DNA of 64,000 nucleotides from a virus: the IMG/VR virus record IMGVR_UViG_3300027896_000014, positions 1 through 64,000 of that record; one strand, 5' to 3'. A model generated the notes under the pieces. That model was not told the origin of the DNA. It did not search any database and saw only the letters and a list, made by a program, of their open reading frames with translations. The translations under genes were made by a program, and so were the position numbers. Of this stretch, positions 3,102 to 60,360 are shown in pieces (the stretch's first letter is position 1; the number at the start of each line of letters is the position of its first letter).

Positions 3102-5061
3102 CCTCCGTTTCGACTCTAAGGGTGGTGTCCTTTGGGGACACGTAGAGAGAAATCACCTGCCCTGGCATTTCGGGAATTTCAGTACAACTTTCCCGATTAT
3201 CAATGAAAATCGGAGCACGTAATCCATAAAATTGTTGTAGAGTCTTTATAATATCCATTCCAGATTGTGTTCTGGCCGCCGAATTTAAACCCGAGTTGTA
3301 GCCTACTCCTCCAACAGTAATTTCACAGCAGTCAGAAATTCCGCCATTTACTTGGACGTCAAATAATTTGAATTTTGTAAACTCGAACTTTCCGTTAATC
3401 CGATCAGTGAGCATGGAGACCTTTGCTTTTATGAATTGGTCCATAAGGTATAACTCGCTTTCCAGTTTTTCAAATTCGGCTGAGAGCTTTTTCTCTTCGG
3501 TCTTCAATTCCTCAATCCGCTTCTCTCCCTGTTCTCTTCCAAGAAACCTGTCAATTTTGGCCTTTTCAAATCCGTAGTGGGCCTGATGCTCCCTGATCTC
3601 TCCCTGAATCTTCTCAATATCCTGCGCCTTGCCTTCCCTTTCGGCCTTGATTTCATCATTAAGGGATTCTATCTCGTCCAAGAGATCGGCGTGGTGGAGA
3701 ATCCCAGAGAAGTCTTCGGATGATTGTTTGAGGGCGTTTCGTTCCTCGGTGACAGATTTCAGCTTGGTCTCGGCCTCGGAAATCGACGAGGAGATGATTT
3801 CACGCTCTTTTTTAAGGGCGTCTATTTCCTCTGCAAGGCGATCCCTCTGTTCTTTCAGGTCATGGCCCCTCCGGTTGATCTCACCTAACCCCTCGGCTTT
3901 GTCTTCATTGAAGGCAGATAGAGCCTTTTCCCTTGCACTCTGAACCCGGTCCGCTGGGAGTGCCTGACCGCAAGATGGGCAGGTGCCTGAAGTCGTGTCT
4001 TTGAATACCCTTGCGTCCATGGCCATCCACTGGTTGCGTATTCGGGTAAGCTCGGCATCCGTGCGTTGAATCTGTGCCTCTTTTTGTTTCAAATCTTCGT
4101 CTATGGCCTGCACTCTCCTATGCGAACCATTCGCCTTGGCCTCTACTTCAGAAATCTGTTGATTAAGACGATTCAGGGTGGAGAGCGATCCGGACCTGTG
4201 GGTATCTTCCATCTTTCGGAGGTCCGCATTGAGACCGGAAAGCTTGGTTGTCAGGGTCCCGACATTACCCCCCGTATTGACCCCCTGTAGCCTCAATTTC
4301 GCATCGTTCAGGGCAGTTTCAAGCCTCTGAGCCTCCGTTTCTGATGCCTTTCTGTCTATGCCAGTAACATCTGGAATTCCACGGCGTACCTCATCGATCC
4401 TTACCGGAATCCTCTCCATTTCCTTGTTAATCTCTGATCGGCGAGCCGTCACTATCTTTCGGTGATCATCGAGGGTGTGTTTTCCGAGAATGACAATGAG
4501 AGGAGATAGTTTCTCATCTGATGCAATTACATCGGCATCTGAGATATCACCACAGACTTCAAGTAAAAGGGCTCGCTGTTTCTGCCAATGGAGTGCCGGG
4601 AAGACTGAAGGTGAAGTAAGAAGGCGAAATCTTTCTTCTGCTCCAGTCATTTCATCAATGAAGGCTTTGTATTCTTTTTCGGTTTTTGGGATTGAATTGA
4701 TAAAGTGCTGTGTGGAATGACCGCTAAACTCTGCCTGTGCATGCCCCCTGGTCTTAATCCATTTTTCTCTAAATATCTTTTTTAGACCTATCTCTTCTCC
4801 CTCTATAAGCAGAATTGCTTCGACCGAATGATCAATACCTCTTTCAGCCACATTGCCATCAGCATCCAGATTTTTAATAGAAAAATCCGCACGGCCAAGA
4901 GCGTCTTTTCCAAAAAGTAACCAAGTGAATCCGCTTAACAATCTGGTCTTACCGGAAGTGTTCATACCATGGATGAATGTATCCTTACCCTCTGCGTTCA
5001 ATTCAAAAGTTCCTCCCTGAAAATCTTTGAGCTTCAATTTAAGGAGTTGTATGTTTTTCAA
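3076..5061 (-). CDS. SbcC/Rad50-like AAA ATPase
   Basis: Walker A GMNTSGKT, long coiled coil with CPSCGQ zinc hook, IFIDNRES Walker B-like motif. Confidence 0.9.
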   Translation of the reverse strand: MKNIQLLKLKLKDFQGGTFELNAEGKDTFIHGMNTSGKTRLLSGFTWLLFGKDALGRADFSIKNLDADGNVAERGIDHSVEAILLIEGEEIGLKKIFREKWIKTRGHAQAEFSGHSTQHFINSIPKTEKEYKAFIDEMTGAEERFRLLTSPSVFPALHWQKQRALLLEVCGDISDADVIASDEKLSPLIVILGKHTLDDHRKIVTARRSEINKEMERIPVRIDEVRRGIPDVTGIDRKASETEAQRLETALNDAKLRLQGVNTGGNVGTLTTKLSGLNADLRKMEDTHRSGSLSTLNRLNQQISEVEAKANGSHRRVQAIDEDLKQKEAQIQRTDAELTRIRNQWMAMDARVFKDTTSGTCPSCGQALPADRVQSAREKALSAFNEDKAEGLGEINRRGHDLKEQRDRLAEEIDALKKEREIISSSISEAETKLKSVTEERNALKQSSEDFSGILHHADLLDEIESLNDEIKAEREGKAQDIEKIQGEIREHQAHYGFEKAKIDRFLGREQGEKRIEELKTEEKKLSAEFEKLESELYLMDQFIKAKVSMLTDRINGKFEFTKFKLFDVQVNGGISDCCEITVGGVGYNSGLNSAARTQSGMDIIKTLQQFYGLRAPIFIDNRESCTEIPEMPGQVISLYVSPKDTTLRVETEVGKHANTR

Positions 5062-55824: not shown

Positions 55825-56151
55825 ATGAAAAAATTCTTACTGGTCTTAATTTTGGTTTTGGGCTTTTCTCTTTCGGCTTTTGCGGCCAAGGAAAGTGTCA
55901 CCTGAGACAACACATCCGGCGGAGTTCCGCTGACAGTCACCACTTATGGAGCTGCGCAAACTGCCTTTATAAGCGTAGAACAGGCTGAGATAAGGTTCAC
56001 CCTCGATGGGAGTGATCCCTCTGTGAATGGGCATCTTCTTGAGCCTGGTATGTGGCTTTCTCTTACCAAGGCCGAACAGATTTGGGGTTTTAGGTGCAAC
56101 CGTACCGGAGGGGCGAGTGGCATCATTAAGTCAGAATATTTTAAAAACTAA
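55825..56151 (+). CDS. Secreted 108-aa beta protein with in-frame UGA at codon 27 (candidate selenoprotein, or pseudogene)
   Basis: AAGGAGG RBS, signal peptide, TGA 55903-55905, 81 further sense codons, hairpin 55917-55932. Confidence 0.6.
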
Positions 56152-57223: not shown

Positions 57224-57616
57224 ATGGACCTTCAACTTGTAAGAAAACAAAAGACCGCTCAATCAACGATGGGTGATCTTGCCGTTAACACCCTTCATGA
57301 ATGCTTTACCTTTGAGCCTCCTAAACCCATCCCTGCTGGTATTTATTTGATAGAATTTTATATGTCCCCTGAACATGACTATTTAGTCCCTCTATTGAAG
57401 GACGTTCCAGGTCACACCTACATAGAGATTCATGTCGGGAATTTCCCGAAGGATACCAAAGACTGTATTCTTGTAGGTCAGAATCGCTCTCCCGATGAGG
57501 TAGGGAATTCCTTACAGGCTTTTATCCATCTTATGCTCAAGCACTTAATTCCCGCAGTTTGGTTTAGGAAAGAACTTTTGAGGATTATTATCACGGAGGA
57601 CTTTCAGGAGAATTAA
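57224..57616 (+). CDS. DUF5675-family protein (candidate endolysin)
   Basis: T.G.L, IPAG.Y, L.DVPG...I.IH.GN...DT..CILVG. Confidence 0.8.
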   Translation: MDLQLVRKQKTAQSTMGDLAVNTLHECFTFEPPKPIPAGIYLIEFYMSPEHDYLVPLLKDVPGHTYIEIHVGNFPKDTKDCILVGQNRSPDEVGNSLQAFIHLMLKHLIPAVWFRKELLRIIITEDFQEN

Positions 57617-57975: not shown

Positions 57976-58158
57976 ATGTTAGGAAAAAACTGGAAGACTT
58001 CTTTGTTTGGTTTGTTAGGCGCCGTTTGCATCGCCATCTATCCAATCCTTCAGTCGGGCAAGGTTGACCCTCACGCATTGATCATGGCGATAGCGGTTGC
58101 GGTAATAGGTTTTCTTGCAAAGGACTTCAATGTGACTGGAGGGACAATAAGGCAGTAA
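57976..58158 (+). CDS. Two-TM holin-like protein
   Basis: KNWKTSLFG, two hydrophobic helices, AKD..VTGG. Confidence 0.65.
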   Translation: MLGKNWKTSLFGLLGAVCIAIYPILQSGKVDPHALIMAIAVAVIGFLAKDFNVTGGTIRQ

Positions 58159-58171
58159 AGAGAGGAGTAAA

Positions 58172-58342
58172 ATGTATTGTCCATGCGGAAAGGAACTTAC
58201 CTTAACATCATTGAATCCATGGGTGACTTTTACAACAGATAATTGGGGTAAAATCATATCTGGTACTTGAATCCACGGAAAATATTTCCCTCCAGTTAAG
58301 GAGGATAAACCATTTCAGGATTATTTTAAGGAGGTAAGATAA
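58172..58342 (+). CDS. 56-aa zinc-ribbon-like peptide with in-frame UGA at codon 33 (candidate selenoprotein, or pseudogene)
   Basis: GAGGAG RBS; MYCPCG...SGT*IHGKY...; TAA ends 1 nt before the next ATG. Confidence 0.55.
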
Positions 58343-58343
58343 A

Positions 58344-58787
58344 ATGAAAAAGCTTATCATATTATCATTTCTTTTTCTGTTTCTAATGGGTTGCGCAACA
58401 TATCAGACCGCTATTACCAAGATCACGGTAATGGATCAGCAAAATGCTGCCACGACCCGAATTGCGGCCAAAGAGATTGCTTCGACATGGCCTCTCAATT
58501 CAAGCGCCCTCACTGTCGTGCTTAAAAAGTTCACTACATTGCTGCCCTGTGCTTGCAGTGATGATATCAAGACTTTGGACAGCATCGCAGCCAAATGCGT
58601 CAAAAAGGATGCGAATGGGCTTCCCACCTGTGAGGAGCTTACGGACCAGGACATGGGCCAAGTAGTTGTCCTGTGGGGATGGGTATGGGGTAGCATCGTA
58701 AAAAGCGGAGCCGATCAGATTATGCAGACCTTCTTCCCAGCGGTGTTAGCTAAGATCCTCCCTTACGTAACTGCGTTGGGTTTATAG
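58344..58787 (+). CDS. Lipoprotein
   Basis: Lipobox LMGC after a hydrophobic signal. Confidence 0.75.
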   Translation: MKKLIILSFLFLFLMGCATYQTAITKITVMDQQNAATTRIAAKEIASTWPLNSSALTVVLKKFTTLLPCACSDDIKTLDSIAAKCVKKDANGLPTCEELTDQDMGQVVVLWGWVWGSIVKSGADQIMQTFFPAVLAKILPYVTALGL

Positions 58788-58876: not shown

Positions 58877-59578
58877 TTGACTTTGGAAATAGACGACAGA
58901 CTATTTGCTATCGAGGAGGAAATAATATGGGGCCTCCTCGATGGATTTTTGAAGAACGCCAAAAGAATCCCGTGGGGTCCAACGAGCAAGGCAGTGGTTT
59001 TCTCCGATCAGCACAGGGGGGATAAGAGTGTTGCGGACCAGTTCCTCAAGAATGAGGACTTACACAATCAGGTGCGTCAATCCTTCCGTCAGGATGGATA
59101 CCTTCTTATAGACAATGGCGACCTCGATGATTTATGGGAATTTGGAGACGCCCCGTACAAATACTACGGGAACTTGCACTCTGACATCAGGACACGTGGG
59201 AATCATGATAATAAACGGAGAGACCTTCCAGAGGTCGTGGTATTAGACTCTGACCCTCCTATCCTCATAACACATGGGCACAAGGGTGATCCGGTCGATG
59301 ACCAGCTTTCCTTTATAGGGGAGGCAGCGGTTCATATTTGGAGGTTAGTTGATAATCTGGGTATTCCGAATCCTTTTGGCGCGGGGTCCACAAGGCATGA
59401 GGACATAAAGGAAATAATGAAGAGATGGTCAAATGCGAGATCAGTTCCTTTGGTTACAGGCCATATCCACTATGCAGAGATTGACGGGATGTATAAGAAT
59501 TCGGGATTTTGGAAAGGAGTAGGCGGTCAGGCCATTATAATTGAAGGAAATGAATTTAAATTGGGGAGTTGGCAATGA
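58877..59578 (+). CDS. Calcineurin-like metallophosphoesterase
   Basis: SDQH, NGDLDD, GNHD, THGH, GHIH, NSG. Confidence 0.88.
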   Translation: MTLEIDDRLFAIEEEIIWGLLDGFLKNAKRIPWGPTSKAVVFSDQHRGDKSVADQFLKNEDLHNQVRQSFRQDGYLLIDNGDLDDLWEFGDAPYKYYGNLHSDIRTRGNHDNKRRDLPEVVVLDSDPPILITHGHKGDPVDDQLSFIGEAAVHIWRLVDNLGIPNPFGAGSTRHEDIKEIMKRWSNARSVPLVTGHIHYAEIDGMYKNSGFWKGVGGQAIIIEGNEFKLGSWQ

Positions 59579-60360
59579 AAAGAAAATACTTATTAAGAAG
59601 GGACAGACCGGATGAAAGGGATTTTCATTCTATGCTATTTCCGCACGAGGAGGTAACAATTCCAACATTCGTGAACCTTCGGAAGTACACCCCTAAAGCA
59701 TTTGACCAGGGCCAGTGGGGAAGTTGCACAGCAAATGCAGGTGTCAGGGCAAGGATCGTTCTGTCCTTATCTGGAGGGAAGCTTGGCATCAGGATCATGC
59801 TCTCCAGAATGGGTCTCTACAAAGAAGAGAAGATCATCGAGGGGGCGCCATTGAGCGAGGACTCCGGTGCCGAGATGAGGGATATTGGAAAGGCCCTTAC
59901 TACGGTCGGAGTGGCCCCCGAATCAGATGACCCCTATACTGATGCCAACTTTGCTACACCGCTTACTTTCCAAGAGAAGACGGACGCTGCAAAATACAGG
60001 GCTAAGTTTTATCAGAGAGTGATCGGGATCACCCAGATCAAACAGTATATCGCTCTCCACCAACAGGGGGTATTGATCGGGATGGATGTCTATGAGAGCA
60101 TGGAAGGGGACCAAGTGGCCAAGGACGGGATACTCCCCATGCCAGGGAAAGGGGAATCTTTATTAGGTGGCCATGCGCTCTACGTAGAGGGTTATGACGA
60201 CAATATGATATATCCTCTATGGCAGAAACAGGGATTAAAGCCTGGGGGCCTGATTATTGCAAATTCCTGGGGAATTTCTTGGGCTGACAAGGGGTATTTC
60301 TTTATGAATTACAAATATGTAAATGATGGTTTGGCTTACGATTCTTGGATTATCCAATAA
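59569..60360 (+). CDS. Papain-like C1 cysteine peptidase
   Basis: DQGQWGSCTA, GGHA, NSWG.SW..KGY. Confidence 0.9.
   Translation: MAMKRKYLLRRDRPDERDFHSMLFPHEEVTIPTFVNLRKYTPKAFDQGQWGSCTANAGVRARIVLSLSGGKLGIRIMLSRMGLYKEEKIIEGAPLSEDSGAEMRDIGKALTTVGVAPESDDPYTDANFATPLTFQEKTDAAKYRAKFYQRVIGITQIKQYIALHQQGVLIGMDVYESMEGDQVAKDGILPMPGKGESLLGGHALYVEGYDDNMIYPLWQKQGLKPGGLIIANSWGISWADKGYFFMNYKYVNDGLAYDSWIIQ

Follow-up and report, generated by a model that had tools for sequence, protein, structure and literature searches.

An in-frame UGA at an invariant cysteine position of a phage mini-gene family is a candidate selenocysteine codon

What does the UGA at codon 33 of a very small phage gene specify: the end of a protein, an accident of mutation or assembly, or a residue? 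The window, by which we mean the whole stretch of DNA analysed, covers the initial 64 kb of an IMG/VR virus record (G000) that is 145,243 bp long and rated complete by CheckV. The phage carries a P22-like portal, less than 40% identical to the portals of Ralstonia and Serratia phages, and an N4-gp56-type capsid, which places it in the N4-gp56 family and nothing narrower. The mini-gene is 171–172 nt in size and comprises, from its ATG at 58172, 32 sense codons, the TGA, 23 further sense codons and a TAA, with the ATG of the next gene (58344) lying 1 nt beyond (Table 1). An initial annotation had noted that the frame stays open past the TGA and closes 1 nt short of the next gene, and that a hairpin follows with its loop beginning 23 nt after the UGA; both features are present in the sequence as described.

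Table 1 Features of the mini-gene, its neighbours and the other UGA-interrupted frame
Feature	Position	Strand	Basis
UGA-interrupted ORF: signal peptide, TGA at 55903–55905, 81 more codons	55825–56151	+	Sequence
Upstream neighbour: 60-aa protein with two hydrophobic stretches, putatively holin-like	57976–58158	+	ORF list
Shine-Dalgarno-like GAGGAG, 4 nt before the mini-gene ATG	58162–58167	+	Read from sequence
Mini-gene codons 1–32, with invariant Cys3, Cys5, Gly6 and Trp17	58172–58267	+	ORF list, alignments A1 and A2, AlphaFold2
UGA, codon 33, candidate selenocysteine codon	58268–58270	+	Cys in homologues
Mini-gene codons 34–56 and TAA stop (58340–58342)	58271–58342	+	Codon comparison, pN/pS
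Hairpin CCUCC/AGUUAA/GGAGG, candidate bacterial-type SECIS	58289–58304	+	Folds, bSECIS constraints
Downstream neighbour: 147-aa predicted lipoprotein, signal peptide ending LMGC	58344–58787	+	ORF list

A phage-only family with cysteine at codon 33

Exhaustive HMMER and profile searches place the mini-protein in a family of small proteins, 50–112 aa in length, that share an N-terminal domain of about 45 aa. The first relative found (L002), in another phage, has TGC where the window has TGA. Seven residues are invariant in the family alignment (A2): Cys3, Cys5, Gly6, Trp17, Cys33, His35 and Gly36. Each of the 68 domain-bearing database proteins has both Cys33 and His35. At the nucleotide level, IMG/VR and JGI metagenome contigs were scanned with IUPAC codon patterns that fixed Cys3, Cys5, Gly6, Trp17, Gly31, His35 and Gly36 and accepted TGA, TGC or TGT at codon 33. 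Across the 45 family loci recovered, window included, this codon is TGT in 29, TGC in 11 and TGA in 5; the chance matches from the same scan (n = 35) split evenly over the three codons, as expected. The supposition that the UGA occupies a Cys site is thus borne out by every homologue found (68 of 68 proteins; 40 loci with TGY), and the CxC plus (C/U)xH pattern read from the window matches the family invariants exactly, together with Gly6, Trp17 and Gly36. Two further UGA forms (L122 and L123) emerged from a second scan, which targeted the UGA together with the hairpin's 5′ arm, so that seven are now known: the window, L006, L008, L032, L061, L122 and L123.

The family is phage-only and known solely from uncultured phage DNA. 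The same codon pattern retrieved no member from 185,579 species genomes (GTDB), only 34 chance matches, and tblastn found none in cultured phages. The sole truncated database entry, P0033 (32 aa), comes from contig L006, where codon 33 is TGA and the frame continues for 95 further codons with the conserved His-Gly-...-Phe-Pro-Pro-Val. An exact look-up of the window's own 32-aa product returned no record.

Some family members have companions or distant resemblances. The Cys form of L002 (P0002, encoded at 4001–4291) is a fusion in which residues 1–47 are the family domain and residues 61–95 a second small module; the latter also occurs as a stand-alone protein of 39–65 aa (P0007, P0009, P0012, P0021, P0025 and P0026). 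Larger proteins of 310–958 aa (P0013, P0017 and P0031) each contain several matches to the second strand region of the family, in which Gly or Ser replaces the family Cys and His, with a motif like GGVISGTGVSGQYF. The mini-domain may be derived from a repeated β-hairpin unit of large surface proteins.

A predicted β-hairpin with a putative four-ligand site

An AlphaFold2 model built from 32 sequences predicts a small domain with confidence (pLDDT 87–96 for residues 1–40) and contains one β-hairpin, with strands at residues 17–22 and 28–33, the second ending at residue 33 itself. No match to the mini-protein was found in Pfam or PHROG, and structure comparison (Foldseek against the PDB; VIA-align) gave no meaningful match. 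The pattern of invariant residues suggests that Cys3, Cys5, residue 33 and His35 form a putative metal or redox site, which may bind metal through these four ligands. The mini-protein resembles small Cys-rich zinc-binding phage proteins (ribbons and knuckles) in its size, in its four invariant Cys/His positions and, in L002, in its location among similar small genes. However, those proteins have two CxxC knuckles, whereas the mini-protein has a CxC...CxH arrangement and matches nothing in Pfam, PHROG or the PDB. Zinc ribbons are built of two CxxC-type knuckles on β-hairpins, and CxC is no ribbon knuckle; given this motif and a single β-hairpin, the label 'zinc ribbon' is not established for the mini-protein.

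Conservation and translation beyond the UGA

Over codons 34–44, comparison of the window with L008, L032 and L061 gives pS values of 0.66–0.93, pN values of 0.06–0.10 and pN/pS ratios of 0.07–0.10; upstream of the UGA, constraint in the same comparison is looser (pN/pS 0.34–0.48). The synonymous sites that vary include those of Ile34, His35, Gly36 and Phe39, all of which lie outside the hairpin. Among the UGA forms, codons 34–45 are conserved (His35, Gly36, Phe39 and Pro-Pro-Val-Lys-Glu), whereas codons 46–56 of the window are a variable tail. Homologues thus continue past the UGA; of the 23 downstream codons, whose conservation the initial annotation had made a touchstone, the first 12 are conserved but the last 11 are not. 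In the L008 clade, the final stop falls at one position, 12 codons past the UGA; L008 and L032 use TGA there, L061 TAG. Because the genes that follow differ between contexts, the conservation past the UGA is not borrowed from a neighbouring gene. Codon comparison shows that the 11 codons after the UGA are under strong purifying selection and that the frame is translated beyond it.

These results bear directly on whether the UGA is a product of decay, that is, a TGY-to-TGA nonsense mutation in a dispensable cassette, or else the true end of a 32-residue N-terminal fragment that alone is made and used. Three points would suit decay: a single substitution turns either Cys codon into TGA, the gene can be dispensed with, as its absence from the closest relative cassette (L001) indicates, and the C-terminal tail of the window form is unconserved. 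Against this stand a pN/pS of about 0.1 over codons 34–44 at near-saturated synonymous divergence, the conserved position of the true stop in the L008 clade and the lack of frameshifts and additional premature stops in all seven UGA forms; the relaxed constraint and further disruptions of a pseudogene are not seen. As for use of the fragment, it would be without two of the four invariant ligands. We regard decay, in either version, as decidedly improbable.

UGA forms recur across sublineages

In the family tree, all UGA forms fall in one clade, alongside six Cys forms. Within it, L006 (UGA) pairs with L003 (Cys) with support of 97/93, a pairing that forces at least two switches between UGA and Cys. 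L122 (UGA) and P0078 (Cys) have a 1-aa deletion in common, which suggests a third switch. With seven UGA forms in at least three sublineages, conserved residues downstream and a pN/pS of about 0.1 there, the data argue for programmed recoding rather than decay, as had originally been proposed for this locus. The same recurrence disposes of an assembly or sequencing error at a single base: the TGA is found in six other diverged, independently assembled contigs, and we rejected this explanation, to which we give practically no weight.

At other sites, UGA is a standard stop in these phages

Phages are known to recode stop codons, and some of the family's relatives come from groundwater samples. 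We considered a changed code in which UGA means Trp or Gly (NCBI tables 4 and 25) and a phage-wide recoding of stops in late genes. Of the 71 large ORFs in the window, 27 end in TGA, as do 55 of the 146 in the 145-kb genome; the count is 27 of 68 ORFs in G001, a complete phage genome of 42.5 kb that contains the L122 UGA form. Its share is therefore 38–40% in G000 and G001, with ATGA overlaps included in these counts. There is no in-frame TGA in the 1721-aa and 2139-aa genes of the phage. The only tRNAs in its genome are a Met(CAU) and an odd Ser(GCU)-type, and no suppressor tRNA is present. Read-through candidates show no excess of TGA over TAA, and scans of G000 and G001 for further genes with UGA read-through yielded nothing convincing. 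Trp or Gly would, moreover, be unfit for an invariant Cys position. Genome-wide reassignment was thus rejected, and we consider the changed-code explanation extremely unlikely. With TGA in normal use as a stop at other sites of these phages, any recoding must be site-specific.

The Ser(GCU)-type tRNA, called by ARAGORN at 143356–143429 of G000 and so outside the window, is 74 nt long, which is too short for the long variable arm of a bacterial tRNA-Ser.

A candidate SECIS hairpin follows the UGA

The published bacterial SECIS (bSECIS) model specifies a loop of 3–9 nt and a stem of 4–16 bp (PMC13188914, Fig. 2A legend), with G in the first two loop positions, usually as G[G/U], a distance of 16–37 nt from the UGA and a minimum free energy of −7.5 kcal/mol or below (PMC13188914). 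We also applied a stricter version, in which the stem has at least 5 bp and the loop carries G[G/U]. All seven UGA forms satisfy the published model, as do 6 of 38 distinct Cys forms (16%) and 8.5% of random genome TGAs; the stricter version is satisfied by six of the seven UGA forms, one of the 38 Cys forms and 2.0% of random genome TGAs. Both in-frame UGAs of the window (58268 and 55903) pass the two versions.

In every UGA form, the loop begins 23 nt after the UGA. The loops themselves are AGUUAA, CGUGAA, CGUCAA and GGU, in which only GU is constant. The initial annotation had attached weight to the AGUU start common to the hairpins at the window's two UGAs; both hairpins do exist, but AGUU is not conserved in the relatives and GU alone is. 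The CCUCC/GGAGG stem is invariant, and covariation thus contributes nothing: no pair is changed on both sides, and hence no compensatory change is seen. The stem is spelled by Pro-Pro and Lys/Glu-Glu codons, which belong to the Pro-Pro-Val-Lys-Glu motif. Among Cys forms, the hairpin is complete in L002, shifted in L116 and only weak in L003; five other Cys forms of the same clade do not have it. Its stability is modest (z −1.4 to −3.0), and the 5-bp stem of the window taken by itself is a weak structure, not above chance (z = −1.7). No Rfam family was found at either UGA site.

The GGAGG of the 3′ arm could have been the ribosome-binding site of the next gene, which would make the hairpin a mere by-product of a Shine-Dalgarno-like sequence. 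This was rejected. The next gene has its own site, AAGGAGGT, at 58329–58336; in the L008 clade, no start codon lies at a usable distance from the GGAGG, and in L061 there is none at all.

Probable reading of the UGA as selenocysteine

We conclude that the UGA at codon 33 is probably read as selenocysteine (Sec), in the window phage and in the six other phage sequences that share it. The inserted residue would be Sec, and the host would possess SelA, SelB, SelC and SelD. The identity of the residue follows from two considerations: only Sec or Cys fits an invariant Cys position and, to our knowledge, no established route other than SelB-dependent Sec insertion places such a residue at a UGA. The mini-gene would accordingly encode a 56-residue member of the phage-only family with Sec as residue 33. 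Host SelB, carrying Sec-tRNA(Sec), would bind the hairpin 23 nt downstream, with its CCUCC/GGAGG stem and constant-GU loop, and deliver Sec to the UGA; ribosomes that fail to insert Sec would release a 32-residue fragment. The 145-kb phage encodes no selA, selB or selD and no SelB wing domain, and no tRNA-Sec was found in it or in five related phage records. As the phage lacks the Sec machinery, this must be the host's, and we assume the host to be competent for Sec. The features combined at this locus are the in-silico criteria by which new bacterial selenoproteins are nominated (PMC12013277).

The main competitor is read-through that does not involve SelB: the UGA would be leaky, a near-cognate tRNA (Cys or Trp) would decode it, full-length protein would be made at a low level, comparable to A1 of phage Qβ, and the hairpin would at most slow termination. 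The data do show translation past the UGA without identifying the residue inserted, the hairpin has no covariation and partly follows a peptide motif, and no Sec machinery is tied to these phages. A leaky stop is, however, expected at a tolerant site, whereas this UGA sits at a position that is Cys in 68 of 68 proteins and recurs there in at least three sublineages. UGA read-through in bacteria inserts mostly Trp, and Trp would destroy the site. Finally, a GU-loop hairpin at SECIS distance is present in all UGA forms, as against 16% of Cys forms. We therefore hold SelB-independent read-through to be unlikely.

A bolder form of the Sec reading is also conceivable, although we advance it only as a doubtful possibility. 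Phages would have turned the invariant Cys of a Cys3His-type site into Sec at least three times by exploiting a hairpin that the Pro-Pro-Val-Lys-Glu codons had already spelled out, a natural origin of a SECIS from coding sequence. Production of full-length protein would then depend on host selenium, as might the timing of lysis in two phages.

The mini-gene behaves as a mobile accessory cassette

The closest relative cassette, L001, is 85–96% identical to the window at the nucleotide level and is without the mini-gene. The 60-aa upstream protein has no significant family match and is conserved in L001, where its gene directly abuts that of the lipoprotein; the L001 lipoprotein is 92% identical to the 147-aa protein of the window. 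Because L001 joins these two genes directly, the mini-gene behaves as an inserted or deleted cassette. We consider it a mobile accessory cassette, and the comparison suggests gain or loss by short homology. Where the two sequences part (window 58158–58344 versus L001 3985–4003), the junctions consist of near-identical ribosome-site/start sequences (GGAG..TAAAATG).

The surroundings of the mini-gene vary. In G001, the preceding gene is endolysin-like (phrog_465) and the following ones encode small membrane proteins. Members of the L008 clade have head genes downstream of it; the L002 copy, fused to the second small module, has small Cys-rich early genes around it. Surroundings of lysis type are therefore found in two of four contexts (the window and G001), and placement in a lysis region is not constant. 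No canonical endolysin family was recognised in the supposed lysis cassette of the window. A role of the mini-gene in lysis is possible and, as a rule, unsupported; the selenium-dependent lysis module that had been envisaged for this region looks weak, with a lysis context in only half of the cases and an L001 cassette that does without the mini-gene.

The local gene order was also recorded. In the window, a DUF5675 protein (57224–57616, E = 2e-24) and a homologue of papain-family C1 peptidases (59569–60360) flank the region. In G001, the segment L126 (597–1935, minus strand) is a compact lysis-type block that encodes, in order, a 104-aa endolysin-like protein (phrog_465), the UGA-containing mini-protein, a single-helix protein of 39 aa and a membrane protein of 183 aa (phrog_1544).

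Relation to known recoding systems

The mini-gene shares several properties with bacterial selenoprotein genes such as E. coli fdhF (PMC13188914): an in-frame UGA that corresponds to Cys in homologues, a mosaic of Sec and Cys forms within one family, conservation on both flanks of the UGA and a downstream stem-loop with a loop of 3–9 nt, G[G/U] and a spacing of 16–37 nt. It differs from them in being phage-borne, in phages without Sec machinery, and in encoding a 45-aa domain that belongs to no known family. At the UGA, the residue looks like a ligand in a Cys3His-type site, not part of a CxxU redox motif, and the hairpin is without support from covariation.

Among viruses, the literature searched contains only two selenoproteins, both poxvirus glutathione peroxidases (GPx1-like in molluscum contagiosum virus and GPx4-like in fowlpox virus; PMC8310308), and none for bacterial viruses. 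There too the UGA is virus-borne and the host machinery decodes Sec, and the fowlpox SECIS lies inside the coding region (PMC8310308). However, the poxvirus genes derive from cellular glutathione peroxidases acquired by capture and have eukaryotic SECIS elements, whereas the mini-gene belongs to a phage-specific family and has a bacterial-type hairpin right after the UGA. Viral sequences were few or absent among the selenoprotein families of a marine trace-element survey (PMC9402790), and the words phage and virus are absent from the BSepDB paper and from a 2026 review of prokaryotic selenoproteomes.

Partial read-through of a phage UGA, with a short and a long product, has a counterpart in phage Qβ, whose A1 protein arises by programmed UGA read-through of the coat gene with insertion of Trp. 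The Qβ UGA lies behind a complete domain; that of the mini-gene takes the place of an invariant Cys inside one.

If the Sec reading is correct, phages tap the selenocysteine machinery of their hosts, and the mini-gene would be a candidate for the first Cys3His-type site known to contain Sec; we know of no natural precedent for Sec as a ligand in such a site. Gene callers would systematically split genes of this kind, of which the database holds only the 32-aa stub of a relative. With 56 codons and a 16-nt hairpin, the locus would also offer a very small system in which to study how a Sec codon and its SECIS originate from Cys codons.

The other in-frame UGA of the window

The other in-frame TGA that had been pointed out in this region, at 55903–55905, is present in the sequence together with its hairpin. 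The latter is a GC-rich element (CGGCGG/AGTT/CCGCTG) at 55917–55932, with its AGUU loop 17 nt after the UGA. No homologue covering residue 27, where this UGA falls, was found in viral contigs, by word search or in cultured phages. Of the two UGAs supposed to lie at Cys sites, homologues bear out the one at codon 33. The only hit is a weak one, in which residues 44–107 of the interrupted ORF match the C terminus of a 261-aa ORF (33% over 64 aa); that ORF adjoins the region of the family gene in L008.
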